DNA from: an uncultured archaeon
GTDB lineage: Archaea > Iainarchaeota > Iainarchaeia > Iainarchaeales > CSSED10-239
Length of the DNA stretch: 16,100 nt
Assembly: GCA_964586355.1 (NCBI GenBank)
Contig: CAZPGO010000018.1
Location: 1 to 16,100, forward strand
Direction: 5' to 3'
Under the pieces are notes generated by a model. The model was given only the letters and a program-made list of their open reading frames with translations, made no database searches and was not told where the DNA came from. Positions 481 through 16,100 of this stretch are shown here, piece by piece. How positions within the stretch are numbered: position 1 is the first letter of the stretch; every line of letters begins with the position of its first letter. A program made the translations under genes and the position numbers.

Positions 481-607
481 ATTATATTTACCTCTTTAGT
501 TTATTAATAAAAATTAAATATTATAATATATTTATAGATATAAACCTTTTAAAAACTAATTTATATGTATATTATATATAGAAAAAAATAAAAAGAGAAA
601 AAAAACT

Positions 608-1879
608 ATGGAAAAATATAAAACACAAGGCTATGTCTTTGAAATAAGAAATTTTGGAAATTTAATGTTTTTTATAGTTAGAGATCAATATAAAAAAGAA
701 CAAATAACTTTTTTTAAAAAAGAAAATCCAGATCTGTTCAATATAGCAAAAGAAATAACAAAAGAATCAGTAATAATAGTAACAGGAGAAAAAAAAGAAT
801 CAGATCAAGCAATAAATGGATATGAAATAATACCAGAAACACTAGAAATAATATCACTTGCAGAAGCACCAGTACCATTAGATATTTCAGGAAAAATAGA
901 AAGTAATTTTGATTCTAGACTAAACTATAGATATATAGATCTAAGAACAGAAGAAAATCTAGCAATATTTAAAGTAAGATCTAAAATTGTTAGAAAAACT
1001 ACAGACTTTTTTGATAATAATGATTTTATTAATATCAATACTCCAAAAATGGTATCAAACGGAGTAGAAAGCGGATCAGAACTTTTTGAAATAAAATACT
1101 TTGAAAAAAAAGCATACCTTTCACAAAGTCCACAAGTATATAAGCAAATGATGATTGTTTCTGGATTTAATAAAGTATATGAAATAGGAGAAGTATTTAG
1201 AGCAGAAAAAAGTCACACCACAAGACATTTAACAGAATTTACTGGAATAGATCTAGAAGTTGGATATATTGATAGTTATGAAGATCTAATGGACCTTCTA
1301 GATAAATATTTTGTAGAACTATTTACCTACATAAAAGAAAACTGTAAAAAAGAACTAGAAATACTAAAAGTAGAACTAAAAATTCCAGAAAAAATACCAA
1401 GAATAACAATGAAAGAAGCAAAAGACCTTTTAAGAGAAAAAGGAAAAGATTTACCCCTAAATGAAGATCTAGATAATGAAGCAGAAAAAATGATTGGAGA
1501 AATTGTTAAAGAAAAATATAATTCTGACTTTGTTTTTGTAACAGAATACCCTTTTTCAAAAAGACCATTTTATCATATGTGTAAAAAAGAAATAGAAAAT
1601 GAAAAAATTACAGAAAGCTTTGATCTAATCTATAACGGTTGTGAAATAGCAACAGGCTCTCAAAGAGAACATAGAGTAAGCATCTTAAAAGAACAAATTA
1701 TTGAAAAAGGATTATCCCTTAAAGACATGGACTACTATATTAAAATGTTAAGCTATGGAGTACCAGCACATGGTGGAATAGGATTAGGACTTGATAGAAT
1801 AACACAATTGTTATTAAACTTACAAAATGTAAAAGAAGCAGTATTACTTCCAAGAGATCCAGAAAGATTAACACCTTAA
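608..1879 (+). CDS. aspS: Aspartyl-tRNA synthetase, short archaeal/eukaryal type (class IIb)
   Basis: The 423 aa protein has an N-terminal OB-fold-like region, class II motif 2 (FRAEKSHTTRHLTEFTGIDLE) and motif 3 (GIGLGLDRI). The QSPQ(V)YKQ segment is typical of Asp/Asn/Lys class IIb enzymes. Its length fits the archaeal type rather than the roughly 590 aa bacterial type. Confidence 0.9.
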   Translation: MEKYKTQGYVFEIRNFGNLMFFIVRDQYKKEQITFFKKENPDLFNIAKEITKESVIIVTGEKKESDQAINGYEIIPETLEIISLAEAPVPLDISGKIESNFDSRLNYRYIDLRTEENLAIFKVRSKIVRKTTDFFDNNDFININTPKMVSNGVESGSELFEIKYFEKKAYLSQSPQVYKQMMIVSGFNKVYEIGEVFRAEKSHTTRHLTEFTGIDLEVGYIDSYEDLMDLLDKYFVELFTYIKENCKKELEILKVELKIPEKIPRITMKEAKDLLREKGKDLPLNEDLDNEAEKMIGEIVKEKYNSDFVFVTEYPFSKRPFYHMCKKEIENEKITESFDLIYNGCEIATGSQREHRVSILKEQIIEKGLSLKDMDYYIKMLSYGVPAHGGIGLGLDRITQLLLNLQNVKEAVLLPRDPERLTP

Positions 1880-2449
1880 TCTTTTATATTCTTTTTTTAA
1901 TAGAGAAAAAATATAGTCATCAACAAACTTACCCTTAGACACATAACTTTCTCTTAATCTTCCTTCTTTTTTAAAACCTAAAGAGAATAAATGTTTTATT
2001 ATTTTTTTATTGTTTGTGTCACAATGAGTTTCAATTCTATTTAATTTTAGTTTATTAAAAATAATTTCAAAAATTTTCATTTTTGCCTCAAACACAAAAC
2101 CATTAGAAACAAATTCAGGAGATAGCCAAGAAAAAGTTGAACAAGTTTTATTTTTTAGATCTATTTGATTTATTCCAATACATCCAATAGGCGCTTTATT
2201 TTCTTTTAACAATATAACATAAAACATTCCATTTTTGAATCTCTTAGTTCTCTTAATATATTTTTCAACATCAGTCATTGTTGGCTTTTCAATAGAACCA
2301 ATAATTGTTGTGTATTTTGTGATAATTTCACTTTTAGAACAATTATAAAAAAAATCCTTATATTTTAAAGAAAAAGGAATCAATAATAATCTTTTAGTTT
2401 CTAAACTTTGTTTTTTAAGATTCAATATATTAATATTTGATTTTATCAT
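1868..2449 (-). CDS. GNAT family N-acetyltransferase (RimJ/RimL-like)
   Basis: The 193 aa protein starts with ETKRLLLIPFS, typical of the Acetyltransf_3/RimJ-like subgroup, and ends with a LGFKKEGRLRE block typical of that family. Its 3' end overlaps the convergent aspS by 12 nt. Confidence 0.7.
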   Translation of the reverse strand: MIKSNINILNLKKQSLETKRLLLIPFSLKYKDFFYNCSKSEIITKYTTIIGSIEKPTMTDVEKYIKRTKRFKNGMFYVILLKENKAPIGCIGINQIDLKNKTCSTFSWLSPEFVSNGFVFEAKMKIFEIIFNKLKLNRIETHCDTNNKKIIKHLFSLGFKKEGRLRESYVSKGKFVDDYIFSLLKKEYKRLRC

Positions 2450-2470
2450 AAATACTCTTAATTTATATAT

Positions 2471-3571
2471 TTAAAACAAACCAAAAAATATGTTTTTTAA
2501 AAAATCAAAAACAAAAACTTCTGCAATTGTCCCTATTAGTAAAAAAATCACAGCAAATATTAAAAGAGTTATACAATATTTAAAAATATAAAAAAACCTA
2601 TCACTATCAATCTTTTCCTTTCTAAGACCAGTTGCAAGAAGAGATCCAGACATTGTTGAAAAGAAATAAGCAATGGCCTCAATTAAGGTGTGCAGACCCA
2701 CACTTAAAAATAACGGTAGTAATATATAGATCAAACCAGTACCATAAGCAGCACTATAAAATAAAGAATATTGTGTAAAAGAAACAGCCCAGTACATAGC
2801 ATTCCAAACAATTAAAAGAGCAGCACCTAAGGGAAACACAAGCGCTACTATAAAACAAACTATGGTAACAGAAGCATTATTAATTAATATATCTTTAAAA
2901 ATAGGCCATTTATTAACACCCTCAAAACCAATCTCTCTGCTTGGAAGTAAAGTCTCACTCCACCCTTGATTATTAAATAAACTTGCCGAATATTCTGCTG
3001 GTATAAAAGCAATCAAAGAAGTAACTACAAGCATAACACCAATAAAAAAGAAAAAATGAATAGCCAATAACTTTTTATTCTCTTCATAAAAATCTTCTAA
3101 AGAAAACTTTTCATTATCCTTTATTCTAAAATTAACTAAAGTAACTCCATTTTTCTCAACTTTTCTAGTCCTTCCCACAAGTAATGAATTCAAATTTGTT
3201 TCATTAATAATAAAAGGAGCAATAAACAAAGTAGCAAAAAAAACAGCAAAAACACCAGGGTTTTCAGGAAATAATAATAAAGAAAATATAAAACTAACCA
3301 TAGTACCAATAATAGCATAATAAATAGACTTACCACCAGCATTTAAAAAACTTGCAAAAAATTTAGGAATATTATGTAAAAAATTTAAAACTATAAAAAA
3401 AAAATCACTTACTGTTTTTGTTTTTGGTTTTTTTTCAATCTTTTTTATTTTTTGATGCTTTTGATCATTTATAGATATCTGAGTCATTTTGCCATATTTG
3501 TTTTTTCTTGGCACATATGGTTCATCATCATTTGTATTTAACCTATGTATTTTAATTTGATCATCAGCCAT
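2471..3571 (-). CDS. Multi-pass membrane protein, possibly SpoIIM/DUF95 family
   Basis: The 366 aa protein has a basic soluble N-terminus followed by about 6 or more hydrophobic helices. The segment GLHTLIEAIAYFFS resembles the HG-x-x-E-hydrophobic block of SpoIIM-like proteins. The family assignment is tentative. Confidence 0.45.
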   Translation of the reverse strand: MADDQIKIHRLNTNDDEPYVPRKNKYGKMTQISINDQKHQKIKKIEKKPKTKTVSDFFFIVLNFLHNIPKFFASFLNAGGKSIYYAIIGTMVSFIFSLLLFPENPGVFAVFFATLFIAPFIINETNLNSLLVGRTRKVEKNGVTLVNFRIKDNEKFSLEDFYEENKKLLAIHFFFFIGVMLVVTSLIAFIPAEYSASLFNNQGWSETLLPSREIGFEGVNKWPIFKDILINNASVTIVCFIVALVFPLGAALLIVWNAMYWAVSFTQYSLFYSAAYGTGLIYILLPLFLSVGLHTLIEAIAYFFSTMSGSLLATGLRKEKIDSDRFFYIFKYCITLLIFAVIFLLIGTIAEVFVFDFLKNIFFGLF

Positions 3572-3634
3572 ATAATTGACCCTTTTAAATATGTTTATAT
3601 AATATTAAAATAAGGAAAAAGAATTTATAAATCA

Positions 3635-4852
3635 TTACCTTTTAGAATTTTGATAAATTCTATAAGTTTCTTCCAAAGTTAAAAATTCAGAAAGCTTTTC
3701 TAAAAAATCTTTTGAAAAAAAAGAACAATTAATAAACTCTGTTATTTTTATATAAGATAAATCAGAAAGTTCAAACCACAGATTATTTTCCTTAATTAAC
3801 TTATCTAAAAGTTCTCTTTTATTAGTATCTTTTGAAGGCAATTTATAATTTTTATAACACTTTACTAACAAAGAAGAATCAGAACCAAAAATCTTTTCTA
3901 AATTATTTTGTTTAGAATAATTAATTATAGCTTCTTTAAGTTTTTCTATTTTAGGATCAATATTTTCCAAAACCTTTTTCTTTTCATCTGTTAATCTCTT
4001 ATACTCTTCAACAAGCCTTACACCAGGCTCATTTAAAAACTCATTTTCTTTGATTGTTTTTAGTTTTTGTTTATGAGCAGTCATTGGACAAATACCCTTA
4101 AACTCACACCAATCACAAAGAGCAGAAGATTTTGCTGGAAAATCTTCTCTTTGTATTGCAGATTCTATTTTTTTTATAGTAGATACTATATCTTTTTCTA
4201 AACATTCCAATTGATCCTTAGTTCTAGAAGATCTCATCTCCAAATTAGCACTTAAAAAATGCCAAACAAGATCTATTTTTTTCACATTAGGAAACATTTT
4301 TTCAATAGCTATTTGGTAAAGAGCTAACTGTTTATCAGAATCTAGCTCTATTTGGTTTTTTGGATTTTTATTTGTTTTATAATCATGAATCTCTATATGA
4401 TCTTCTGAGAGTAAAGTTAACCTATCAATATAGCCAACTAAATTATAAAGAATTTCGGAATCTGCATCATAAAACCTTATAGGAATTTTCATTTCTAGAC
4501 CAATTGTTTTTCCTTGATCAAAAGGTTTATATCTGTTGTAATATTCAGTTAAGTATTGCTTACCCATTTCCTTATAATTCTTTTGAGAATAATCTGATCT
4601 TACAATCTCTATTTTGTTCTCATCATACTCATTATTCCAGCACTCAAGATAATACTCAAGAATTTGATCTAAAGAATTTTGTTTTAAAAACTTAAGATCT
4701 GTATATAATTTTTCTAAGGCTAAATGAACCATTGAGCCCATAAATGCCTCAATAGAGTTTTTCTTTTCAATATCTGGTTTTTCTATATAATTATAGTAAA
4801 ACTTTTTTGGACAGGTCTTAAAGGTTTCTAATCTTGAATGAGAATAAATCAT
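3635..4852 (-). CDS. PD-(D/E)XK nuclease, Cas4/RecB/AddB-like, with a 4-Cys Fe-S cluster signature and a long C-terminal extension
   Basis: The N-terminus YSHSRLETFKTCPKKFYY is the typical family start and includes the first Cys (C14). The nuclease core is IDRL (D143), D157-Y-K159 and QLALY. The C-terminal cluster is C246-x2-C249-x5-C255 (CDWCEFKGIC). About 150 further residues follow with no recognisable family. Confidence 0.75.
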   Translation of the reverse strand: MIYSHSRLETFKTCPKKFYYNYIEKPDIEKKNSIEAFMGSMVHLALEKLYTDLKFLKQNSLDQILEYYLECWNNEYDENKIEIVRSDYSQKNYKEMGKQYLTEYYNRYKPFDQGKTIGLEMKIPIRFYDADSEILYNLVGYIDRLTLLSEDHIEIHDYKTNKNPKNQIELDSDKQLALYQIAIEKMFPNVKKIDLVWHFLSANLEMRSSRTKDQLECLEKDIVSTIKKIESAIQREDFPAKSSALCDWCEFKGICPMTAHKQKLKTIKENEFLNEPGVRLVEEYKRLTDEKKKVLENIDPKIEKLKEAIINYSKQNNLEKIFGSDSSLLVKCYKNYKLPSKDTNKRELLDKLIKENNLWFELSDLSYIKITEFINCSFFSKDFLEKLSEFLTLEETYRIYQNSKR

Positions 4853-4949
4853 AAATAATCATTTTTTAATAATATATATTAAAGAGAGATAGATTATAAA
4901 AAAGTAACTAGTAAATAAATTTATAACAATATAAGTAAAGAACATATAT

Positions 4950-5381
4950 ATGGAATACAAAATACAAAAAAACAACCTTAAAAAAATAAAAACAGAATTT
5001 TTAGAATTTTTTCCAAATGTTTTAAAAGATAAAGATCAGAAAAAATTAATAAAAGAATATCAATATATTGCATATGCTAAAAAAAACAAAATTGTGTGCT
5101 GTGTTTTATTTAAAGAATATTTAGATTTTCCTTATATCTGGCAACTTGGTAGAATATCTACGACTAAAAAATATTTGGGAAAAGGTATTGCAAGTAACCT
5201 TCTAAAAGAGATCTCTAATTTTATTACTTTAAAAAAAGGTAAAAAAATATTAGTCTATGTTTCTGAAGAAAACAAAATCGCACAAAAATTTTACATAAAA
5301 AACAAATTTACAAAAGAAGCAAAAATAGAAAAAATGAAACTTGGAATAAAACCATTATTTATTTTCACTAAAGAATTATAA
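4950..5381 (+). CDS. Small GNAT-like acetyltransferase
   Basis: The 143 aa protein contains LGKGIASNLLKE, which matches the acetyl-CoA binding Q/R-x-x-G-x-G/A motif, followed by a AQKFYIKNKF block (the family's FY-x-K-x-GF-like motif). Confidence 0.55.
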   Translation: MEYKIQKNNLKKIKTEFLEFFPNVLKDKDQKKLIKEYQYIAYAKKNKIVCCVLFKEYLDFPYIWQLGRISTTKKYLGKGIASNLLKEISNFITLKKGKKILVYVSEENKIAQKFYIKNKFTKEAKIEKMKLGIKPLFIFTKEL

Positions 5382-5406
5382 ATTTATTTTAAAAAAAACA
5401 TTCATC

Positions 5407-5575
5407 TCCTAGGCTTTCCTTTAAAGAAAAATTGTTTTGGGATTAAACTTTTATGAAAAAGTTTATTTCTCGAGGCTTTCTTTCTATTTCGTTTTTGATT
5501 AAACTTTTATGAAAAAGTTTATACTAAGCGAAACCATTTTTGTTCTTTCCCGAGGCTTTCTTTTTAAGAAAGGCT
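5407..5575 (+). repeat. Imperfect tandem repeat in an intergenic region (about 2.5 units)
   Basis: The exact 26-nt sequence gattaaacttttatgaaaaagtttat occurs at 5441..5466 and 5497..5522 (period 56). The box (c)gaggctttc(c/t)tt occurs three times, at about 5411, 5473 and 5553. Each 26-mer contains the inverted repeat aaactttt/aaaagttt. Confidence 0.7.
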
Positions 5576-5662
5576 CCAGTGGACAAGACCCCCCTTACAA
5601 AAATAACCCCTCTTTTAAAGATCATAAATATATATTTAAATATTTTTTTAAAAAGAGAAAAA

Positions 5663-6334
5663 ATGAAACTAAAAGAATATTGTCCAGATAATAGACCACT
5701 TGAAAGATTAATTTATTATGGACCAGAAACACTTTCCACCTCTGAACTACTAGCAATAATCATAAAAACAGGAACAAAAGAAAATAATGTTTTATCCCTA
5801 GCAAATATAATACTAAGTAAGTTTAATTTAGAAAAATTATCTCAAGTAACCATAAACGAATTAGAAGAAATAAAAGGTATTGGAAAAACCAAAGCAGCAC
5901 AGATAAAAGCACTTTTTGAAATATCTAAAAGAATTACTTGTTACAGATCTAATCTTTCCACAAAAGTTTTTAGCCCCAGAGATGTTTATAATTATTTAAA
6001 TAGTGAATATCTTAATTACCCTAAAGAAAAATTAATAGTAACCTGTTTAAATTTAAAAAACGAGATAATTTCTAAAAAAATTATATCTATAGGCACAGAC
6101 GATCAAACACTCTTTTCAACAAAAGAGATTATTAATTTTGCAATAAGAGAGTGTGCTAATGGGATAATAATATCTCACAACCACCCATCAGGAGTAACAA
6201 TACCATCTACATATGATAAAATAGCAACTGACAAACTAAAAAAAGCATGTGACCTTATAGATCTTCAATTAATAGATCATATGATATTTGCTAAAGAAGG
6301 ATATTATAGTTTTAAAGAAAATAAAGAACTATAA
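5663..6334 (+). CDS. radC: RadC-like JAB-domain protein
   Basis: From the ATG at 5663 the protein reads MKLKEYCPDNRPLERLIYYGPETLSTSELLAIIIKTG, the canonical RadC N-terminus. It has a helix-hairpin-helix segment (EEIKGIGKTKAAQIKA) and a JAB/MPN metal motif (HNHPSG). The ORF track's start at 5540 is a TTG with a low-complexity leader, so I prefer 5663. Confidence 0.85.
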   Translation: MKLKEYCPDNRPLERLIYYGPETLSTSELLAIIIKTGTKENNVLSLANIILSKFNLEKLSQVTINELEEIKGIGKTKAAQIKALFEISKRITCYRSNLSTKVFSPRDVYNYLNSEYLNYPKEKLIVTCLNLKNEIISKKIISIGTDDQTLFSTKEIINFAIRECANGIIISHNHPSGVTIPSTYDKIATDKLKKACDLIDLQLIDHMIFAKEGYYSFKENKEL

Positions 6335-7006
6335 TACAAAAAAAGTAGAAAAAGATAATACTACTAAAAAAATAATAGTAATAAAAGCACTTAGAAATGT
6401 AACCTGCTTAAAAGAAAGATACTTTGTTTTTGTAAGCTTTGATAAAAGAGAAGCAATATAAAATCCAAGAATCAAAAAAGCATAAAGTCCTGAAACAGTT
6501 ACAAAGCTTATAAGAGAGTATTCTACAAACTCTCTTATAATAATTAAGCAAACCACAAAGAAAAGTATAATTATACAAGTAGTTAAGAAAGTTAAAAAAT
6601 AAGATAAATTGTTTGCCTTCTTAGCAAAAGGATCATAAACTATATACCACAACAAGATCAAAGAGAATAAAAAGAAATTACTATAACTTGCTGTTTTTTC
6701 CACAAACATTAAAATTAAAAAAAATATAGCTGATAATATAGCAAAAAAGCTAGAAATATTTTTCACAAACTTTTTTTCTAAAAATGATTTTTTTGGTATT
6801 ATTATTTGTGGTGTTATTTTTTTAATCATTTTTTTTAGTTTAATTGGTCTATGCATAAAAGGATCTTTTATCTTTTTATTAACAGATCTTTTAAAAGCCT
6901 CTTTTTTTGTTGCTGTTTTCTTTAAAGATTTTTTTGATGGAGATCTTGTATTAACATCTTTTTTATTTCTAATTTTTTTTTCTTTTTTCAAAGTTGTTTT
7001 CACCAT
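6329..7006 (-). CDS. Hypothetical membrane protein with a lysine-rich N-terminal tail
   Basis: The 225 aa protein has about 75 strongly basic residues (KKEKKIRNKK...KKTATKKEAFKR) followed by 4-5 hydrophobic helices. I recognise no family. It overlaps the convergent radC 3' end by 6 nt. Confidence 0.45.
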   Translation of the reverse strand: MVKTTLKKEKKIRNKKDVNTRSPSKKSLKKTATKKEAFKRSVNKKIKDPFMHRPIKLKKMIKKITPQIIIPKKSFLEKKFVKNISSFFAILSAIFFLILMFVEKTASYSNFFLFSLILLWYIVYDPFAKKANNLSYFLTFLTTCIIILFFVVCLIIIREFVEYSLISFVTVSGLYAFLILGFYIASLLSKLTKTKYLSFKQVTFLSAFITIIFLVVLSFSTFFVL

Positions 7007-7047
7007 TAAACTAATATGTATATTTAATTAAAAATATTTATAAATCA

Positions 7048-8154
7048 TTAGATTTTATAGTTTTTAAGAAAATCAGCCTTAAACTTATTAAAAGTACCAT
7101 TTTCTATATGCTTTCTAGAATCTTCCATTAATCTATGAAGAAATCTTACATTATGTTCTGATAAAAGAATCTTTGCAGCTGCTTCATTTAATCTATATAA
7201 GTGATGCAAGTAAGCTATTGTGTGGTGTTTACAAGCATAACAATCACAATCCTCTTCTATTGGCTTAAATATGTGTGCATTATAGCTCTTACCTATCTTT
7301 AAAAAACCCTTTCTAGTAAATATAACACCATGTCTTGCCATCTTAGTTGGATAGATAGAATCAAAACAATCTACTCCTTTTTCTATTGAAATGATCATAT
7401 CTTGAGGTGAACCAACACCCATCAAATACTTTATTTTGTTTTTATCTAAATGTTCTAAAGAATAATCAATAGCTTTATACATATTATTCTTACTCTCACC
7501 AATAGCAAGACCACCAATAGCCAAGCCATCAAAACCCATATTGTTAATAGCAAGAGCACATTCTTTTCTTAGATCTTTATAAACACCACCTTGAACAATT
7601 CCAAAAACTTTTTGCTTTTTGTTTTTATGAGAATCTAAACATCTTTTTGCCCAATCAATAGTTCTTTTTGTAGCATCTTCAAACTCTTTTTTTGAGTGAT
7701 CTGGTCCTAAAACATGGTCTAGAACCATAGCAACATCTGAACCTATAATATTTTGATTATCCATTAATTTTTCTGGAGAAATAAAGTGTTCTGTTCCACA
7801 AAAAGGAGATCTAAATCTTACTCCTTTATCATTTAAGGATACTAAAAACTCCGGATCCAATAATTGAAAACCACCACTATCAGTAAAAATTGGTTTTTGC
7901 CAATTGATAAAGTTATGATAGCCTTTTGCTCTTTTTATGGTCTCAAGACCTGGTTTAAGATATAATAAATAGGCATTGGAAATAAAGCACTGAGTATTAA
8001 GATCTTCTAAAGATCTAAAAGTTAAAAATTTGCCAGCACCTTTAGTAACAACTGGCATATAAAAAGGAGTTTTTATTTTTCCGTGACTTGTTTTAAAGAT
8101 CCCAGATCTTGCCTGTTTTGATTCATTTGTAATTTTAAACATAATCTTTTCCAT
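7048..8154 (-). CDS. tgt: tRNA-guanine transglycosylase, catalytic domain only, bacterial/eukaryal (queuine-type) sequence flavour
   Basis: The 368 aa protein contains TPFYMPVVTKG, FTDSGGFQ, GGLAIGES, YLMGVGSPQDM...GVDCFDSIYPTKMARHG and the zinc site CDCYAC...AYLHHL. These blocks match Tgt/QTRT1-type enzymes rather than archaeosine ArcTGT, which has VDSGSFQ and LFGAGHP and carries C-terminal C2/PUA domains. Confidence 0.85.
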   Translation of the reverse strand: MEKIMFKITNESKQARSGIFKTSHGKIKTPFYMPVVTKGAGKFLTFRSLEDLNTQCFISNAYLLYLKPGLETIKRAKGYHNFINWQKPIFTDSGGFQLLDPEFLVSLNDKGVRFRSPFCGTEHFISPEKLMDNQNIIGSDVAMVLDHVLGPDHSKKEFEDATKRTIDWAKRCLDSHKNKKQKVFGIVQGGVYKDLRKECALAINNMGFDGLAIGGLAIGESKNNMYKAIDYSLEHLDKNKIKYLMGVGSPQDMIISIEKGVDCFDSIYPTKMARHGVIFTRKGFLKIGKSYNAHIFKPIEEDCDCYACKHHTIAYLHHLYRLNEAAAKILLSEHNVRFLHRLMEDSRKHIENGTFNKFKADFLKNYKI

Positions 8155-9332
8155 TAAATTTTATTTCTATCTTCTAAATTCTTTAAAACAATTAACTTCA
8201 TTAACTTTGTAAATTCAAAATCATTTCTTCTTTCAGAAAGTTTTGTTTGTCTCATATAAACATCAAAATAACCTGCAGGGATATTAACTAGCGGAAAACC
8301 AAACTTTACTAGAATTACAGAAAAGATAGCTCTTGAAGTTCTGCTATTTCCATCAATAAAAGGATGTATTCTTTGAAATTCATTATGCAAGTATGCTGCT
8401 TGTTCTATTATTTTACTTGGTTTTTCTTTTTTTGACATTACTTCTAATAATGTTTTATTAAACTTATCTAAAGACAAAGACAATTCTTTCCAATCTGTTG
8501 TTTTAAAATTAGGATTTCCTTTTATGATTACATTTTGTTCTCTAATTTTACCTACGCCGTAATCTAATGAGGCCATTGCAATCTTATGAAAAGCTAATAT
8601 ATTTTCTAAATTAATATCTTTAGTTAAAAGAAAATTTAAAGCAGTTTTGTAATTTTCAGTTTGTTGAATATCCTTATATAAAGGAACATTAGGAGTTATA
8701 TTTTCTCTTAATAACTTTTCTGTTTGCGGTAAAGTTAAAGTAATTCCTTCTAAAGATAAACTTGTATATACAAAATTAATGTGATCAGGTAAAGAAATCT
8801 TTTGTTTTTTTTTATATCTTGAATATTCTTTTTCTATCTTTGTATCAATGTCTAAATCATCATAATCTAATTTTGTTTTAGTATTTATATTTAAGAAAAA
8901 CTTAATTAATAAATCAGTAAAATTAGAAGGAATTATTCTTGCTTTTAATGGCCTTTTTGATTCTATAAATACCATTCCTGCTTTTGATAAATAATCGTTA
9001 TATTTTTTAATAGTTTTACTGTTAAACAAAGTAATATCTAAATATTTTTTAGAATAACCAGATGAAAGATATTTTGCTATATTTTTAGAAACAATTACAT
9101 TATAGTCTAAACCATTTTTAAAACAAAAATAAACTAATGAGAAAAGCTCTTGTGATTTTTGTTTATTTATTGAATAATGGTTGTTATCATTTATAACTAA
9201 GCTTTCTTCTTGTAATTTATTTAGATTATTATAAATTGATAAATAAGTAGCAGACGGAAGTTCTTCTCTTATCTCTTTTATTGTTTTTTTTGATAAAGCA
9301 ATTATTAAAAAAACATCTAGTTTTGTTGGCAT
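8154..9332 (-). CDS. Fic/DOC family protein with an N-terminal winged-helix-like domain
   Basis: The Fic active-site motif HPFIDGNSRTSRA matches HxFx(D/E)GN(G/K)RxxR, with Ser in place of Gly. An upstream S-x-x-x-E-G element (SLSLEG) matches the class II auto-inhibitory helix motif. The N-terminal roughly 60 aa (KKTIKEIREELPSATYLSIYNNLNKLQEESLV) looks like a wHTH. Its stop overlaps the tgt start (TAATG). Confidence 0.85.
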   Translation of the reverse strand: MPTKLDVFLIIALSKKTIKEIREELPSATYLSIYNNLNKLQEESLVINDNNHYSINKQKSQELFSLVYFCFKNGLDYNVIVSKNIAKYLSSGYSKKYLDITLFNSKTIKKYNDYLSKAGMVFIESKRPLKARIIPSNFTDLLIKFFLNINTKTKLDYDDLDIDTKIEKEYSRYKKKQKISLPDHINFVYTSLSLEGITLTLPQTEKLLRENITPNVPLYKDIQQTENYKTALNFLLTKDINLENILAFHKIAMASLDYGVGKIREQNVIIKGNPNFKTTDWKELSLSLDKFNKTLLEVMSKKEKPSKIIEQAAYLHNEFQRIHPFIDGNSRTSRAIFSVILVKFGFPLVNIPAGYFDVYMRQTKLSERRNDFEFTKLMKLIVLKNLEDRNKI

Positions 9333-9422
9333 ATAATAGATATAGGATAGGAATTGTTTATAAATTATTACTATTTGGTAATAAAAGTATAGTTTTTATA
9401 TATATTTAGTACTAAATAGCAC

Positions 9423-10262
9423 TTAAATTATAAAAATATTATAAATCAAAATAGAAACAACACCTAGAAGTATATAGATTCCAAACCTTGGAAGATAATC
9501 ATAGATGGGAATTGATTTATATCCTAATTTCTTAATCTTCTCAATATCTTCTATTTCTAGAACTGCTCTTTTTTCTAGACCTGTTTCTTTTAATAAATCT
9601 TTATTACAAAACTCAATAGCTAAAACGTCTCCTTCTTCAAGTTTTGAAATTGGTTTTCTTCTTAAATAAATAAACTCTTTAACTTCATCTTCTAGAACCA
9701 TAACAATACAACCAAAAAACATTGGTGGGATTGTTAGGTATAGGTATTCAGGTAATCCTTCTTTAGCTACTGCATAGAAACACAATGCTAAGAAAAGAAC
9801 AAAGAAAAGGAGTGATTGAATTATTTTTCCTTTCTTTTTTTCTAATAATTCTTTTGTTATTTTTATTTTCCCATATAGTTTAATTATATAAGTTACTGAA
9901 ACAAACAACACTGACAAAAGAGAAGAAGCAATAATTGCCCATAAGATAAATAGTTGTCCTCCTAGATACGGTAAGATCATATGTATTCCAAGAAACAACT
10001 TAATATCCCCTCCACCAATCTTTCCATAATAGTAGGCGATGTAGCCAAAGACATAGATTGCTAGAGCTATTAAGAGAATTGACAATACATCCAGCCAATA
10101 GAAAGTAAAAAGATTAATAATTAATCCAATCACTATCAATGGAAGACTTATCCAATCAAATATATATCCTGTCTTATTATCATAATATGCCGCTAAACCA
10201 ACTGCAAGCAATAATGCAATAACTCTAATAATAAAAATTGTATCAAACATCATAGCACTCAC
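9423..10262 (-). CDS. A24-family aspartic peptidase (archaeal prepilin/preflagellin peptidase, PibD/FlaK/EppA-like)
   Basis: The 279 aa polytopic membrane protein has a first Asp region (AAYYDNKTGYIFDW) after TM1 and the second catalytic motif GGGDIKL (GxGD). A soluble insert of about 60-70 aa sits before the last TM helix, as in FlaK-type enzymes. Confidence 0.75.
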   Translation of the reverse strand: MSAMMFDTIFIIRVIALLLAVGLAAYYDNKTGYIFDWISLPLIVIGLIINLFTFYWLDVLSILLIALAIYVFGYIAYYYGKIGGGDIKLFLGIHMILPYLGGQLFILWAIIASSLLSVLFVSVTYIIKLYGKIKITKELLEKKKGKIIQSLLFFVLFLALCFYAVAKEGLPEYLYLTIPPMFFGCIVMVLEDEVKEFIYLRRKPISKLEEGDVLAIEFCNKDLLKETGLEKRAVLEIEDIEKIKKLGYKSIPIYDYLPRFGIYILLGVVSILIYNIFII

Positions 10263-10317
10263 AAATAATTAACCACAAACAAATTTAAAAAGATGTTTGT
10301 TTTTTATAAATCAAAAT

Positions 10318-11820
10318 TTAAGATAATTGATATATTTTATTTATTTTTCTAAGATAATAATTGGCATTTTTAATTTGCTCAGTTATAAAAATTCTTTTCC
10401 CAGTAAGTAATATTTTATTAATCATGAAGATAGATTTAAACAAATTAACAAAAATATAATTTCGGGTTTTATTTAAAGAAAAACCAAACCATTTATTTAA
10501 AAGAAAAGCATCAGCCCCTAGAACTCTAAAATATCTACCAACATCTAATAAAACAATTATATTTTCTTGATTGTTCTTAAAAAATAGACTCTGGTTTTGA
10601 AAATCAGTAATATTGTTTGAATATTTATCTGTTATTTTATTATTTTCAAAAATAAAAAAATTAAGTAAGAAAGGATTATCCTGCTTTAGCTTTATAATTA
10701 ACTTTTCACTTTTAGTGTATTTAAGATAACCTAAATAACTATTTATTGATCTTATAAACGCAGACGTAAATTTAAAATCAATTACCTGAATGTTATTTAC
10801 AAAATAATGACTTTTCTTCTTAAATTTATTTACTTTTCTAAAAATGTTATTCACCACTCTGTTCCTTGGTAAAAGATAGCTTGGTTTAATTATGTAACCT
10901 ACAAAATTTATTCCTGATGTTATTGGTTTTAGAATAGTTATTGGTTTTAATTTAAGATCTAGTTTCTCTTTTATAAACTCCTCAATCTTTTTTTTCAAAA
11001 GTAAAAGTTCTTCTTTTGATTTTGAAAGTATTATAAAATCATCAACATATCTTACATAGTGTTTAATTTTCAGTTCATGTTTAATGTATTGATCTAATTT
11101 ATTAAGATAAACGTTTGCAAAAAATTGACTTGTTAAATTGCCTATTGGTAGCCCTTTATTCTCATTTACATTAAAAAGAGTTTTATGTTCTGGAACACCT
11201 GCTTTTTTCCAAGTTAATCCTTTTTGAAAATAGTTGTTTGTTGGATTATGAAAGATTATAGTTTTTGTAAGCCAAAGCCAATTTTTATCTTTTATTTTTT
11301 TACTTAACATGTTAAATAATATATTTTTATCAATACTCATAAAAAAATTATGAATATCTAGTTGTAAAAAATACGCTTTTTCTTTTGAGTTTTTTGTAAT
11401 TTGTCTAGTGAAAGTTTGTGCTCTTTTTACTGCTTTTAAAGTTCCTTTATCTTTTCTACAAGCATAACTATCATAAATAAATATTTTTTCATAAGTGGGA
11501 TTTAAATAATTATAAAGTAGATGATGAATAACTCTATCTTTAAAATCAGCAGCAAAAACCTCTCTTGGTTTTGGATCAGTTATGGAAAAACAAACAGAGC
11601 GAGCTGGTATATATGTTTTATTATTTAAACAAACTACCAACTCTTGTAAATTACTTTCCAGATTGACTTCAAATTTTAAAGCATTAATTGTATTTCTTTT
11701 ATTTTTTCTACAATCTTTATATGCTTTATAAAGCTCCTCAAAAGTAAACTCATGTTCACGGACACAACGCACTTGTTTATCATTAGTCTTATTGTTGTTG
11801 TTGATGTTTCCATTGTTCAT
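10318..11820 (-). CDS. DGR-type reverse transcriptase with a C-terminal MutS-domain-I-like extension
   Basis: RT motifs present are PREVFAADFKDRVIHH, FLQLDIHNFFMSID, LPIGNLTSQFFANVYL (the [ILV]GxxxSQ signature of DGR RTs, aa 225-232), YVRYVDDFIIL (YxDD, aa 258-261) and INFVGYII. Residues about 405-482 resemble MutS domain I. The first roughly 23 codons lie inside the TR, so the true start is uncertain. Confidence 0.9.
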   Translation of the reverse strand: MNNGNINNNNKTNDKQVRCVREHEFTFEELYKAYKDCRKNKRNTINALKFEVNLESNLQELVVCLNNKTYIPARSVCFSITDPKPREVFAADFKDRVIHHLLYNYLNPTYEKIFIYDSYACRKDKGTLKAVKRAQTFTRQITKNSKEKAYFLQLDIHNFFMSIDKNILFNMLSKKIKDKNWLWLTKTIIFHNPTNNYFQKGLTWKKAGVPEHKTLFNVNENKGLPIGNLTSQFFANVYLNKLDQYIKHELKIKHYVRYVDDFIILSKSKEELLLLKKKIEEFIKEKLDLKLKPITILKPITSGINFVGYIIKPSYLLPRNRVVNNIFRKVNKFKKKSHYFVNNIQVIDFKFTSAFIRSINSYLGYLKYTKSEKLIIKLKQDNPFLLNFFIFENNKITDKYSNNITDFQNQSLFFKNNQENIIVLLDVGRYFRVLGADAFLLNKWFGFSLNKTRNYIFVNLFKSIFMINKILLTGKRIFITEQIKNANYYLRKINKIYQLS

Positions 11821-11856
11821 ATTGATGTTGTAGGCATTACCTGCCCCATACTCCGT
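11753..11856 (-). repeat. DGR template repeat (TR)
   Basis: The 104 nt align without gaps to 12535..12638 (offset +782). On the coding strand the TR is adenine-rich (about 43 A by my count). In the VR frame it reads T E Y G A G N A Y N I N M N N G N I N N N N K T N D K Q V R C V R E, with 11 AAY codons. Confidence 0.92.
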
Positions 11857-11990
11857 CGTGTTCTTTTGTGAAAGATCTTTTATTAAAAAATTTCATCTTT
11901 TATTACAAAAGTAGAAATTAATTAAATTTACTTTACTACCATCTAGGTGTCTTTCATCACCATGAATAACCGCTCTTGTAAAACTGCTTT

Positions 11991-12377
11991 TTATTTCACA
12001 TTTACAATTCCGGGCGTCTCTGTTTGTTCTCGCTTTTGCGAGCATAATAGCCAATTGTTGGCTTGAGTGGTAAGATTAGTTATTAATTTTGAAACATACC
12101 CGTGTGAATTTTTATTAGGAAAACCATTTATCTCTTGACATAATCTTACAACTAATTTTAATTCTTCAATTAGAATTATCAATTCTTGAATATCTGCAAT
12201 TTTTTTATTAGATACATTTGCTCTTATTACTTGCATTGCTATTTGTCTGGATTTGTTTTTTAGATCAGTTCCTATTGTAAACTTATTACCTTTATCAAAA
12301 TTTTTAACAATTTTTTCAAAATACACAGCCAAATCAAAAGAGGACTTATAAATTGCGAGGTTTTCATAATTAACCAT
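11991..12377 (-). CDS. avd: Avd-like accessory variability determinant (four-helix-bundle protein)
   Basis: The 128 aa protein sits between the target gene and the TR, as avd does in BPP-1. The N-terminal pattern YKSSFDLAVYFEKIVKNFDKGNKFTIGTDLKNKSRQIAMQVIRAN fits the four-helix-bundle (23S rRNA IVS-protein-like) family that includes Avd. Confidence 0.72.
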   Translation of the reverse strand: MVNYENLAIYKSSFDLAVYFEKIVKNFDKGNKFTIGTDLKNKSRQIAMQVIRANVSNKKIADIQELIILIEELKLVVRLCQEINGFPNKNSHGYVSKLITNLTTQANNWLLCSQKREQTETPGIVNVK

Positions 12378-12429
12378 TCTTAATCACACCACAGTTACCT
12401 TTTGCATTTTTCAAAAAAATTGCAACAAA

Positions 12430-12521
12430 AGTCACACCCCGCTGGGATGTGACTTTACAGACTCCCAAAACAAGACAACCGCTGGTTGTCTTGTTGTCTT
12501 TGACAAGCTTTGCTTGTCAAA
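12430..12521 (-). other. Three consecutive stem-loops immediately 3' of the VR/target stop codon
   Basis: Hairpin 1 (12430..12454): agtcaca-c-ccc / gct / ggg-a-tgtgact, 10 bp with one mismatch. Hairpin 2 (12469..12495): aacaagacaacc / gct / ggttgtcttgtt, 12 bp perfect. Hairpin 3 (12499..12521): tttgacaagc / ttt / gcttgtcaaa, 10 bp perfect. Hairpins 1 and 2 share the apex ccgctgg. Confidence 0.8.
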
Positions 12522-12530
12522 AACCATTGC

Positions 12531-13382
12531 TTACTGGTCACGGACACAACGCACTCGTCCACCATTGGTCTTATCGGTGCTCTTGATGGCCCCAGGCTTC
12601 ATATCGATGCTGTAGGCACTACCTGCCCCAGACTCCGTGCTTGACCAATAATCGTCACTTACTAACGAGACAAAGTTACTGTTTGTCGCTAAAATTGCTG
12701 CATTCATACAAGCATTAGATTTAGTTTGCGCAGTACATGCCTCCCAAATAATCATTAACTGACTAGCAGATGGAAGATACCAATCTGTGTAACCATTTGA
12801 ATCTAAATTATCACAATAATCCATTGCTTGTTGCCAATTCATAGTAGTTGTGTTTTGATCTGGCTGAATGTATAGCTTGCTATTCCCAAACATCACATAT
12901 GGCAAATCAACAATCGGCGCTGTGTAGTTGTTGGTTATGTTTTTTATACCTATATATTGATTGCTTGTTGTCTGTAAAATGATTGTGACTTTGGTGTTAG
13001 TAGTTAACCCTAACTTAGAAAAATCTGTTAAGGAGATAACATTTGTTCCTTGCTTTAAGGTGTAAGGGGATGAAAGATTGGTGTCTGAACTTTCTCCAGC
13101 ATCGGAAATTACCTTATATTTACTTATTACTAATTCTCCAAAATTACTTTGAGGAGAATAACTGAATTGAAGAACTCCGTCTTGTAAGGCTTTTGGATAA
13201 ATAAAAGCTTCTGCATCGGATTGAGTAAGTTCAGCAACTGTTGTTTTATTTAAGGCATCAGTTGTAAACATCTTTCCCCAATTTAAGACAATAGTCACTA
13301 AAATGACTGCAACAACGATTAACAGAATTGCTGCAATCAATGGAGAAACAGATTTTTTTCTAAAGTTTAATTTTGATTTCAT
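12531..13382 (-). CDS. DGR target protein: class III signal peptide (archaeal type IV pilin N-terminus) plus a DUF1566/C-type-lectin-fold-like variable C-terminal domain
   Basis: The N-terminus RKKSVSPLIAAILLIVVAVILVTIVLNW matches the archaeal pilin N-terminal pattern (R/K-x-x-SP-hydrophobic helix). The C-terminal half, MNWQQAMDYCDNLDSNGYTDWYLPSASQLMIIWE...DYWSST, resembles DUF1566 (Lcl C-terminal-like) domains known as DGR targets. The VR covers the final 34 codons. A GAGGT Shine-Dalgarno-like box lies about 10 nt upstream of the ATG. Confidence 0.85.
   Translation of the reverse strand: MKSKLNFRKKSVSPLIAAILLIVVAVILVTIVLNWGKMFTTDALNKTTVAELTQSDAEAFIYPKALQDGVLQFSYSPQSNFGELVISKYKVISDAGESSDTNLSSPYTLKQGTNVISLTDFSKLGLTTNTKVTIILQTTSNQYIGIKNITNNYTAPIVDLPYVMFGNSKLYIQPDQNTTTMNWQQAMDYCDNLDSNGYTDWYLPSASQLMIIWEACTAQTKSNACMNAAILATNSNFVSLVSDDYWSSTESGAGSAYSIDMKPGAIKSTDKTNGGRVRCVRDQ
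12535..12638 (-). repeat. DGR variable repeat (VR) at the 3' end of the target gene
   Basis: 84 of 104 positions are identical to the TR. Of the 20 differences, 17 fall where the TR coding strand has A. The 3' (coding-direction) 17 nt gtgcgttgtgtccgtga are identical in both and GC-rich, which is IMH-like. The VR encodes TESGAGSAYSIDMKPGAIKSTDKTNGGRVRCVRD, the last residues of the target. Confidence 0.92.
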
Positions 13383-13477
13383 TTTTTATTGACCTCTATT
13401 CTTTTTTTTCTTTTTTTTCTTTTATTGCCTTTTCTCTCTTTACTTATTAATAAAATAATAAAATAAATAGAAGAAAG

Positions 13478-13495
13478 ATATATATATATATATAT
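13478..13495. repeat. (AT)9 dinucleotide microsatellite
   Basis: The run atatatatatatatatat lies in the intergenic region between the srp54 stop and the DGR target gene start, about 100 nt upstream of the target ATG. Confidence 0.8.
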
Positions 13496-13558
13496 TGGTT
13501 TTTCAAGTGATTATTAAAAAAAAAGAGAATTAAAAAAAAAAAGATAGTTTGTAAAAAA

Positions 13559-14986
13559 TCACCTAAACTTTAACTTCTGCTTCTTCATTCCTTTCATGTT
13601 TGCAAACTGACTCATGTCCATTTTAGAAAGATCTAAACTATTTGGATCAAGTTCACCATTTTGACCTTGGAATTGCTTTGCCATTCCTTCCATTTTCTTA
13701 GTATCCATGCCTTTAAACATTTTCTTCATTTTCTTAATATGCGAAGATAGTTCTTTTACTTCTTCTAAACTTGTTCCAGAACCCTTTGAGATTCTGTCCA
13801 TTCTTGAACGAGTAAGAAAGTCAGGACCATTTTTAAGTTCTTCTTTTGTAAAAGATTCTAAAATTGCTTTATATTTATCCATCTTTTTTTGACCAACATT
13901 CATTTGATCATTCGAAATCTTATTTCCAACACCTAAAAAACCTAAAACCTTTGAAAAAGGACCAAGTTTTTTTGAAAATTCTAACTGTTGTTTAAATACT
14001 CCAAATGTAACATTTCCTTTCAAAAGTTCTTCTGGATTAATATCTTTTATTTTTTCTAGTTCTTCTTCTTGAGTTACTTCTGAAATCTTCTCCATTAAGC
14101 TTTCAAGATCTCCAAACCCAAGAACTCTTGAAAGATATCTATTGGAGTCAAAGATTTCAAAATCATCTGCTTTTTCTCCAGTTCCAATAAAATAAACAGG
14201 AGATTTAGTAATATAACAGGCAGTTAGCGCACCACCACCTTTAGCAGACCCATCAAGCTTTGTAATAATAACACCGTTAACACCAATAGCAGTATTAAAA
14301 GCAGTTGCTTGATCTTTAACAGCTTGACCAATATCTGCAGAGATTACTAAGAATGAAAATTTAGGAGTAAACACATCATTTATTTCCTTAATCTCTGTTA
14401 CTAGCTCAGAATCTAAGGCACTTCTTCCTGCTGAATCAACAATAATTAAGTTACATCCGTTTTTCTTATGAACCTCAAGTCCTTCTTTAGTAACCTTTCT
14501 TGCAGATTTTTCATTAGTGTTTCCATAAAAATCAACATCAACCATTTCAGACAATTGTTTTAATTGTTCATAAGCTGCTGGTCTATATGTGTCTGCACAA
14601 ATAACACCAACCTTTAATCCTCTCTTCTTATAGAACTTAGCAAGTTTTGCTGCAGTTGTTGTCTTTCCTGAACCAAACAAACCACAAAGAAGAATTGTTT
14701 CTGGGTTTTCAGGAAGTAGAGTTTTTACTTCTCCACCCATATATTTTAGAAGAGTTTCATAACATAATCTAACAATATGTTCTTTTCTTGTTATTCCCGA
14801 AGGTATTTCAACAAAGGCTTTTTCTTCAATTTCTTTTGAGATATTTAGAACTAGTTGTATATTTACATCTGAGGAGATTAAAGCTCTTTGAATCTCCTTA
14901 ATTACTTCTTTTATTAGATCTTTGTCTACATGCATAGAATGTTTTACTTTATCTAATGCATCTCTTAGTTTATCTCCAAAGCCCAT
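13559..14986 (-). CDS. srp54: Signal recognition particle protein SRP54
   Basis: The 475 aa protein has an N domain, the G-domain motifs GLFGSGKTTTAAKLA (P-loop), DTYRPAA, DSAGR and TKLDG, and a Met-rich C-terminal M domain (MKKMFKGMDTKKMEGMAKQF...MDMSQFANMKGM). Confidence 0.93.
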   Translation of the reverse strand: MGFGDKLRDALDKVKHSMHVDKDLIKEVIKEIQRALISSDVNIQLVLNISKEIEEKAFVEIPSGITRKEHIVRLCYETLLKYMGGEVKTLLPENPETILLCGLFGSGKTTTAAKLAKFYKKRGLKVGVICADTYRPAAYEQLKQLSEMVDVDFYGNTNEKSARKVTKEGLEVHKKNGCNLIIVDSAGRSALDSELVTEIKEINDVFTPKFSFLVISADIGQAVKDQATAFNTAIGVNGVIITKLDGSAKGGGALTACYITKSPVYFIGTGEKADDFEIFDSNRYLSRVLGFGDLESLMEKISEVTQEEELEKIKDINPEELLKGNVTFGVFKQQLEFSKKLGPFSKVLGFLGVGNKISNDQMNVGQKKMDKYKAILESFTKEELKNGPDFLTRSRMDRISKGSGTSLEEVKELSSHIKKMKKMFKGMDTKKMEGMAKQFQGQNGELDPNSLDLSKMDMSQFANMKGMKKQKLKFR

Positions 14987-15144
14987 ATTTGATCAAATAT
15001 ATATTTTAGTATATATATTTTAAATAAGAAATAAATATAAAAGGGTATTTTCTGTTTAAAAAAAGCTTATAAAAAAGAAAAATAAATTTTTATCTTATTT
15101 CTGTTTTTTATTAATAGTTTAAAAAAAAGTTCAATAAATTAAAA

Positions 15145-15426
15145 CTATTTTAAAAAAAGACCTTTAATAAAAGATCTATTATTCTTAAAAACCACAAAAG
15201 ATTTTGATATTTTATTATTTAAAATTAAGCCTATAGTTCCAGAAGTTTTATCAGAACTATTTATTTCATTAAAAACATCTGCTTGATTTAAATCTTCTTC
15301 AATCACTATTCTATTTCTAGATTTTGTTGAATTTTGTATTAAAAATATTGAAACTAAAACAGCCCCAAGAATAACTATTCCTAACAAAATAATTATTTCT
15401 ATTGATATTTGTCCTTTTTTTACCAT
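15145..15426 (-). CDS. Small class III signal peptide (type IV pilin-like) protein
   Basis: The 93 aa protein starts MVKKGQISIEIIILLGIVILGAVLV. This is the KGQ-x-S-x-E motif followed by a hydrophobic helix, as in EppA/PibD-processed archaeal pilins (DUF361-like). Confidence 0.65.
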   Translation of the reverse strand: MVKKGQISIEIIILLGIVILGAVLVSIFLIQNSTKSRNRIVIEEDLNQADVFNEINSSDKTSGTIGLILNNKISKSFVVFKNNRSFIKGLFLK

Positions 15427-15449
15427 CCATAATCACAATTAAATTTTTA

Positions 15450-16100
15450 TTATTCTTTAACTTCAATATAAAGAGGTTCTAAATATCTTTTAGTTGAAAA
15501 AGGATCCTCAATATAATAAACAAACTTATAATTTCCTGGAGAATTACATATTACAGAATTTTCAAAACTATAAAAATCCTTAACTTCACTGGTACTACCT
15601 AATTCCTCATAAAACCCAGAACCACTTGAAGTACCTTGATCAGAATAACACTCTTCTGTGGATTCATAATAGTTAGGACTAGTCTCCTTTTGAATACTTA
15701 AATTTTTAATCCCATAAGAAGAATTTTCGAGAATAGTTTCATAAGAATAAATAAAAATTGTAAACTCTTCTCCTGGTGATCTTACTAAACCTGAAGAATA
15801 TGCAAAAGCATCACTTATATAAATGTTAACTGGTGAACTCCAAGAAACAACACCATCTTTTTTACCAGAATATCTTATTTGATATTCTCCTTTAGCTCTA
15901 CAACTAATTTCTGGAAGTATTAAATTATATTCAGATATCATAGGATCTAAGTTAATTCCAAAACTACCAATAGAGACAAGAATTAAAATTTCTCCAAAAC
16001 AATCATTAGTTAGCACAAACGAAGCACCTTGTTTTTTTTTAATTTCTATTTCAGTAATTTCTGTTCCTTCTTTGTAATTTGAGGTTAGATTAAGATCAAA
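15450..16100 (-). CDS. Hypothetical secreted/surface protein, C-terminal part (ORF open to the right edge)
   Basis: The ORF track starts it at a GTG (16016). However, the same frame translates without a stop through 16017..16100 (FDLNLTSNYKEGTEITEIEIKKKQGASF-VLTND...), so the gene most likely begins outside the window. It is Ser/Tyr/Glu-rich and I recognise no family. Confidence 0.5.
   Translation of the reverse strand, partial: FDLNLTSNYKEGTEITEIEIKKKQGASFVLTNDCFGEILILVSIGSFGINLDPMISEYNLILPEISCRAKGEYQIRYSGKKDGVVSWSSPVNIYISDAFAYSSGLVRSPGEEFTIFIYSYETILENSSYGIKNLSIQKETSPNYYESTEECYSDQGTSSGSGFYEELGSTSEVKDFYSFENSVICNSPGNYKFVYYIEDPFSTKRYLEPLYIEVKE

Follow-up and report, generated by a model that had tools for sequence, protein, structure and literature searches.

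Where does the reverse transcriptase (RT) of a diversity-generating retroelement (DGR) begin when the template repeat (TR) runs directly into its gene, and where does this leave the RNA elements expected between the two? The question is raised by a stretch of 16,100 nucleotides from an uncultured archaeon of the Iainarchaeota (GenBank assembly GCA_964586355.1, contig CAZPGO010000018.1, positions 1 to 16,100 of the forward strand), hereafter the window. This stretch contains a complete DGR cassette on the minus strand, from approximately 13382 to 10318, in the order target gene with variable repeat (VR), bAvd-like gene, TR and RT. The DGR of Bordetella phage BPP-1 has, 3' of the TR, a non-coding spacer of 140 nt that provides the priming adenosine, an Avd-binding stem-loop, a thumb ring and a bRT-binding stem-loop, and similar stem-loops "just downstream of TR" have been predicted in 207 of 278 DGRs (10.1101/2023.10.23.563531). 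The BPP-1-type RNA also includes the avd 3' end and a duplex formed by sequences flanking the TR on either side. No BPP-1-type non-coding spacer of ~140 nt is found between the TR and the RT of the window. The reading favored here, with a probability of roughly 70%, is that the RT is translated from an ATG inside the TR (11820..11818), carries a disordered leader of ~22 residues that copies the target C-terminus in unmutated form ahead of an otherwise normal DGR RT, and has no start codon of its own, with no non-coding spacer in between. The features on which this reading depends are the following:

11753..11856, minus strand: template repeat, 104 nt, identified by a repeat finder as the sole long direct repeat with the VR (81% identity)
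12535..12638, minus strand: variable repeat, 104 nt, the last 34 codons of the target gene
10318..11820, minus strand: open reading frame (ORF) of the DGR reverse transcriptase, 500 aa, with YVDD and IGNLTSQ motifs
11753..11820, minus strand: TR/RT overlap, encoding RT residues 1-22 and part of codon 23 (MNNGNINNNNKTNDKQVRCVRE) in the VR frame
11818..11820, minus strand: ATG, the likeliest RT start codon, inside the TR and kept in 12 of 13 close loci
11770..11772, minus strand: in-frame GTG (Val17), an alternative start, also inside the TR

The nearest upstream stop in the RT frame is the TGA at 11895..11893, and no ATG, GTG or TTG occurs in that frame between this stop and the ATG at 11820..11818. 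This bears out an earlier note on this DNA, which had described this ATG as the only one opening the RT frame and had placed it within a TR/RT overlap at 11753..11820; the TR indeed spans 11856..11753 and the RT ORF 11820..10318. Since the 3' end of the TR falls within codon 23, RT residues 1-22 are TR-encoded. Downstream, the window has no ATG, GTG or TTG between the TR end and the codon of Cys37, a distance of 40 nt, and the conserved RT helix starts ~12 nt past the TR with no intervening non-coding sequence. By geometry, RT coding sequence would therefore have to harbor the functions of the BPP-1 spacer. Position 11856 opens a codon in the RT frame, as 12638 does in the target frame; the TR is therefore read in the frame of the VR, and the two peptides align as had been written (NAYNINMNNGNINNNNKTNDKQVRCVREHEF in the TR, SAYSIDMKPGAIKSTDKTNGGRVRCVRDQ followed by the stop in the VR). 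By itself this same-frame relation has a chance of 1 in 3, and the TR is automatically open in the VR frame because it copies coding sequence.

At the protein level, the RT has a clear RVT_1 match (7e-21), and the bRT of BPP-1 (8ub7_A) is its best PDB match both by sequence (8.3e-43) and by fold (TMt 0.87, 31% identity). An AlphaFold model built with a 32-sequence alignment has a mean predicted local distance difference test (pLDDT) score of 90, with residues 1-20 below 50 and the first predicted helix at residues 27-40, in agreement with the proposal that the recognizable RT begins at aa 27, past the TR-encoded leader. Among 32 homologues, the first near-invariant column is Y34 and the first invariant one C37, which answers the question, also posed by the earlier note, of where RT conservation sets in. 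On the basis of the model, the leader is most simply seen as a tolerated disordered tail.

The repeats themselves bear the marks of adenine-specific mutagenesis. The TR and VR differ at 20 positions, 17 of which are TR adenines (11 A>G and 6 A>C) and three of which are other bases; given that 43 of the 104 TR bases are A, the chance of at least 17 of 20 mismatches falling on A is 7.8e-5. Of the three non-A mismatches, one reflects a change in the window TR, as the TR of the close relative L144 still matches the window VR there. The RTs of the window and L144 are 95% identical and their TRs nearly identical, whereas their VRs differ at many TR-A sites. Judged by its sequence, the DGR is complete and apparently active in a DPANN-type archaeal host. 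The 3' end of the repeat consists of an 18-nt block (AGTGCGTTGTGTCCGTGA) that is identical in TR and VR and resembles the initiation of mutagenic homing (IMH) segment. A separate observation concerns the 3'-most homologous position, where the same TR-A versus VR-C mismatch is seen in many independent loci (L012, L016, L020, L021, L032 and the window clade; for example GGAAAGTG versus GGACAGTG, or GTGAAC versus GTGACC). From its recurrence, this mismatch looks like a fixed IMH/IMH*-type difference and not like random adenine mutagenesis.

The junction in close relatives and across the family

Thirteen close loci, with RTs 47-95% identical to that of the window, were available from NCBI, Logan, ENA and JGI assemblies of different samples. 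The TR/RT junction is the same in all 13, all lack a start codon in the stretch that separates the TR from the first conserved RT helix, and the ATG of the N-M-N-N-G segment is present in 12. In the exception, L151, the site reads CTA and the ORF continues to an ATG further upstream. A spacer lost from the window by sequencing or assembly error, which the earlier note had held open, is excluded by the junction shared among these 13 loci.

The 120 best protein homologues span many bacterial phyla as well as DPANN archaea, one being named Woesearchaeota and another Diapherotrites by the sources. Approximately half of them have a precomputed Pfam Lcl_C match at the called RT N-terminus, and these N-termini read as translated TRs, for example MQSNNYWSSTTNANN...NMNNGNVNNNNK...YVWPVR. 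The Lcl_C/DUF1566 match at the RT N-terminus (P0018-P0119) is a systematic annotation pitfall, as it represents a translated TR. According to the database gene calls, a TR-like N-terminal leader is present in 79 of the 119 top homologues, while 30 homologues begin at most 10 residues before the equivalent of Phe25; the leader is therefore dispensable for the fold.

At the DNA level, 79 related loci with a TR/VR pair located upstream of the RT were grouped by the distance from the TR end to Cys37, with the VR frame of each locus assigned by AAY-codon counting:

Junction of at most 70 nt (40 in the window): 47 loci; RT ORF running into the TR in 43; no ATG after the TR in 40; no start of any kind in 31; frames 0/1/2 = 25/15/7
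Junction of 76-134 nt: 32 loci; RT ORF running into the TR in 20; no ATG after the TR in 2 (30 with an ATG of their own); frames 0/1/2 = 6/8/18

The remaining loci have junctions of 152-316 nt, near the length of the BPP-1 spacer. The 43 of 47 short-junction relatives in which the RT ORF enters the TR again speak against a spacer lost by error in the window. Regarding the reading frame, the earlier claim that the RT N-terminus shares the frame of the VR holds for the window by codon phase, but it does not hold as a general property: a universal same-frame rule was considered and rejected, as all three frames occur in both classes. For the same reason, the sequence of the leader is probably not selected, and the significance attached to the shared frame had been overstated. 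In a neighbor-joining tree, frame 0 is fixed in the archaeal clade of the window (11 of 11) and in two bacterial clades, with adjacent clades in frame 1 or 2.

The earlier note had also proposed that the cassette arose by the fusion of a copy of the target 3' end onto the RT, and several details fit this origin. In frame-0 relatives, the TR/VR homology extends to the last codons of the target, and the TR codon opposite the target stop is a sense codon: TGA>TGT in L012, L016, L020 and L032, TGA>TGG in L001 and L007, and TAG>TGG in L004. In the window, the homology ends 4 nt short of the stop position (GAC CAG TAA versus GAA CAT GAG). In L002, L035 and L042 a stop directly follows the TR-VR homology, with the RT start just beyond; this stop is not the image of the target stop because the VR is internal to the target in these loci. 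L044 and L058 show a TR-like peptide, then a stop and then a start, and no TR/VR pair was found for either. A fusion origin of the overlap is plausible on these sequence comparisons, and the same-frame relation would have been inherited within the window clade, probably from an old fusion of this kind. What is conserved in general is not frame identity but a tight junction, with the frame staying open up to a start codon that lies within the TR or upstream of it; in this RT lineage the 3' end of the TR abuts the first conserved helix of the RT, ~12-20 codons ahead of the invariant Cys37. In several Patescibacteria/candidate phyla radiation (CPR) loci (L011, L015, L024, L043, L056 and L065), the RT is preceded by a (GA)n tract, translating as RERERER... 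in the RT frame, and no TR was found upstream of the RT.

Points against the TR-internal ATG and the alternatives

Several observations weigh against translation from the ATG at 11820. Unlike most genes of the window it has no TATA-like box at -25 to -30, and unlike avd and the target gene it has no well-spaced GGTG-type Shine-Dalgarno (SD) motif. The conservation of the ATG is no independent evidence, because the DUF1566 target likewise requires the TR to encode Met or some other hydrophobic residue. The in-frame GTG is retained in 9 of the 13 close loci and could serve in this particular element. As a test of translation through the TR, the frame concordance of nearest neighbors is just modestly higher in the short-junction class and not significantly so (64% versus 43%, Fisher p = 0.095).

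Results on the RNA also count against the overall reading. RNAalifold was applied to the RT 5' coding region of 46 short-junction loci, aligned without gaps and anchored on codons, and gave no consensus structure; the top stacked-pair scores fell between invariant codons, and the predicted helices 3' of the TR in 10 close relatives vary on one side only, with no two-sided changes. The search for a priming-site analogue, suggested by the earlier note, has thus found no covariation-supported structure in the RT 5' coding region. Synonymous diversity is 0.23 in codons 25-75 compared to 0.30 in the rest (p = 0.06), which is marginal as a sign of an embedded RNA element; it drops to 0.14 in the TR-encoded codons, where a low value is expected from the template role. 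An Rfam scan of the window returned no family at threshold. The sole covarying element that was found lies upstream of the TR:

11883..11925, minus strand: conserved AU-rich hairpin between avd and the TR, containing the out-of-frame ATG 11896..11894

This hairpin comprises 16 pairs. Across ten relatives, 96.8% of the cells are paired versus at most 69% with the partner slid, and five pairs are changed on both sides versus 0-1 when slid. Candidate roles for the hairpin are to arrest cDNA synthesis or to serve as a protein-binding site; it could also overlap the TATA-like TTTTTTAATAAAAG situated ~30 nt before the TR 5' end.

Of the other places at which translation might begin, the GTG at 11772..11770 is the nearest. 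This codon, Val17 of the VRCV segment, still lies in the TR and had been named in the earlier note as a possible internal start. GTG is a legitimate start codon in archaea and two ORFs of the window are called with it; furthermore, the BPP-1 bRT has a tail of ~14 residues before its first helix, and the 10-residue tail resulting from a GTG start would then be of normal length. However, the codon reads GTT, GTC, GTA and GTT in L146, L081, L148 and L151, respectively, which leaves these loci with the ATG or an upstream ATG. With four synonymous forms Val17 behaves as an ordinary four-fold Val codon, and no SD-like motif precedes it. A GTG start is consequently disfavored and considered unlikely. 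A start at the ATG 11896..11894, reached through a frameshift or hidden by a 1-nt sequencing error in the window, would have the whole TR translated, as in P0002/L146, which reads in frame from this codon (MNFLKKRSSTKERTEYG...); the similar peptide of the window (MKFFNKRSFTKEH) is in the +1 frame. Yet the independent assemblies L144 and L145 share the frame of the window, in which this ATG is out of frame; it stands in yet another frame in L147, L150 and L082, is followed by a stop in L081 and is replaced by ATA in L083, L148 and L149. The G of this ATG pairs with a C inside the covarying hairpin, which explains its conservation and makes it a structural nucleotide and not a start. With neither frame nor presence conserved, this candidate was rejected as the true start, and we regard it as very improbable.

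Two further alternatives leave the start codon aside and concern the meaning of the arrangement. The TR-encoded leader, or translation through the TR, might itself be functional, for example if the passage of ribosomes that start within the template gated the use of the RNA for reverse transcription, or if it tied the newly made RT to its own RNA in cis. Frame 0 occurs in 25 of 47 short-junction loci where one third would be expected (nominal p = 0.004, uncorrected for phylogeny), several clades have a sense codon in place of the target stop and codons 1-24 have the lowest synonymous diversity. The excess of frame 0, however, stems from a few clades, the low synonymous diversity is what the template role predicts, and the family shows no conservation of the peptide sequence, since all three frames occur in it; many homologues lack any leader, and that of the window is predicted to be disordered. 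A functional leader is accordingly improbable. Hardly any credence is given to artefact or decay, that is, to a spacer lost by misassembly or to a dead DGR with an unexpressed RT. The three non-A TR/VR mismatches might be taken as signs of decay, but one of them is a change in the TR, near-identical elements carry VRs that have come to differ at A sites, the RT has an uninterrupted ORF, its catalytic motifs and a well-predicted fold, and the junction is identical across assemblies from all four sources. Taken together, translation of the RT from within the TR is supported, with the ATG at 11820..11818 favored over the GTG.

Overlapping this ATG, a +1-frame mini-ORF (MGQVMPTTSI, then a stop) lies inside the TR at 11817..11849 on the minus strand, and its end forms an ATGA overlap with the RT start codon. 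Such a stop/start overlap is a classic layout for termination-reinitiation coupling. The mini-ORF is perhaps a mere by-product, since it is built from the conserved AAT-GCN and AAT-ATG-AAC codons.

The template RNA and known DGRs

If the RT is translated from the TR-internal ATG, the RNA segment on the 3' side of the TR, responsible in BPP-1 for recruiting Avd and RT and for priming the cDNA, would overlap the 5' coding sequence of the RT, and the template RNA and the RT mRNA would overlap or form one molecule. A more specific scheme, intended for a large DGR lineage (DPANN, CPR, Desulfobacterota, Nitrospirota and others), is that the template RNA is the RT mRNA, that the Avd- and RT-binding and priming elements lie in the first ~50 RT codons, and that TR-internal translation competes with or licenses reverse transcription, thereby favoring action in cis. 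This scheme is possible but rather doubtful. If true, it would provide a built-in cis-favoring switch that is absent from the spacer-containing BPP-1 model.

To our knowledge, BPP-1 is the only DGR for which the mechanism of reverse transcription has been solved, and this mechanism depends on the 140-nt non-coding spacer. The element in the window and most of its RT lineage are without such a spacer, which implies either that the RNA functions are overlaid on coding sequence or that priming differs. For the reconstitution or engineering of compact archaeal and CPR-type DGRs, a minimal template RNA would have to extend into the coding sequence of the RT, whose start codon is inseparable from the TR unless redesigned. 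The interest of the locus is modest and lies mainly in this consequence for how spacer-less DGRs prime reverse transcription.

Compared to BPP-1 (mtd-avd-TR-Sp-brt), the window has the same gene order of target/VR, putative avd, TR and RT, adenine-specific mismatches and a hairpin behind the VR. It differs in having the start codon inside the TR and the conserved helix ~12 nt past the TR in place of the non-coding spacer, and in an additional MutS-I-like domain at the C-terminus of its RT. Overlap of this general kind is not peculiar to the window and has been known since 2012, when DiGReF "group 3" was defined by an overlap of the TR with the RT ORF at the 5' end of the latter (Schillinger et al. 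2012, PMC3521204). With its overlap at 11753..11820, the window falls within this definition. That study, however, classifies annotations only, is silent on frame, start codons and the missing spacer, and concludes that the arrangement is irrelevant to the mechanism (PMC3521204). According to a later survey, the TR is intergenic "in most cases" (Roux et al. 2021, PMC8144416). A word search of PMC8144416, PMC5758913, PMC4372165, PMC6642488, PMC8867640 and PMC10907252 found no statement on an in-frame TR-RT fusion, a TR-internal start codon or a clade-wide lack of the spacer, leaving the DiGReF group 3 category as the only precedent.

The DGRs of Nanoarchaeota, other DPANN archaea and CPR resemble that of the window in a small-genome archaeal host, a compact cassette and an archaeal neighborhood, and no mention of a TR/RT overlap, a pilin-like target or MutS was found in their description (Paul et al. 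2015, PMC4372165). The Legionella-type DGRs of the DUF1566/CLec2 type share a VR in a DUF1566-type domain and a link to MutS; three RTs with weak MutS_I C-terminal extensions have been reported, in addition to MSL accessory genes (Wu et al. 2018, PMC5758913). In contrast to those DGRs, the MutS_I-like domain of the window is fused to the RT, an arrangement common across hundreds of homologues.

Target gene, accessory domains and neighborhood

The remaining features of the cassette are as follows:

12531..13382, minus strand: DGR target gene, 283 aa ORF with a Lcl_C/DUF1566 C-terminal domain and an archaeal pilin-like N-terminus
12496..12524, minus strand: first hairpin 3' of the VR, of the DGR target-recognition type, with compensatory changes in relatives
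12469..12495, minus strand: second hairpin 3' of the VR, with an invariant AGC loop followed by a T-run, and with compensatory changes
11991..12377, minus strand: bAvd-like accessory gene, 128 aa, with a PF22296 match
10357..10602, minus strand: MutS domain I-like C-terminal domain of the RT, aa 407-488 (PF01624, E 0.001, 19.7 bits versus a 20.6-bit cut-off)

In the target protein, residues 177-281 match Lcl_C in a profile search (2.5e-16), and the Pilin_N match of the N-terminus is weak (0.008). The two hairpins stand in tandem directly after the target stop and occur behind the VR only, not behind the TR. The stem of the first changes from GACAAGC/GCTTGTC to AACGAGC/GCTCGTT between relatives, and that of the second from CAAGACAACC/GGTTGTCTTG to CAAGATGTCC/GGACATCTTG. 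This tandem fits the target-recognition and terminator elements of DGRs, the second hairpin probably doubling as the terminator of the target gene.

The bAvd candidate matches PF22296 with 8.3e-09 and 36.3 bits, below the curated cut-off of 40 bits, and is syntenic at the same position in all close relatives. The MutS-I-like domain is confidently folded in the AlphaFold model, and a precomputed PF01624 match exists for a large proportion of the best 120 homologues; the window cassette lacks a separate MSL gene.

The window has a G+C content of 26%, which, taken with the cassette and the genes around it here and in relatives, indicates an archaeon of the DPANN type. Neighboring genes encode SRP54, a class III signal peptide protein and a prepilin-peptidase-like protein, and in relatives the DGR adjoins proteasome, aCPSF1-like and archaeal helicase genes. 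The prepilin-peptidase-like gene (9423..10262) and the class III signal peptide protein (15145..15426, minus strand) lie near the DUF1566 target with its pilin-type N-terminus (12531..13382, minus strand), and an adhesin displayed on a pilus may be what the DGR diversifies. In most genes of the window (e.g. upstream of the ORFs at 2449, 3571, 5381 and 9332) a TATA-like box precedes the ATG by 25-30 nt and an SD motif is absent, which suggests leaderless mRNAs, and a GGTG/GAGGT-like SD motif precedes a few ORFs, namely avd, the target gene, 15145..15426 and 15450..16016.

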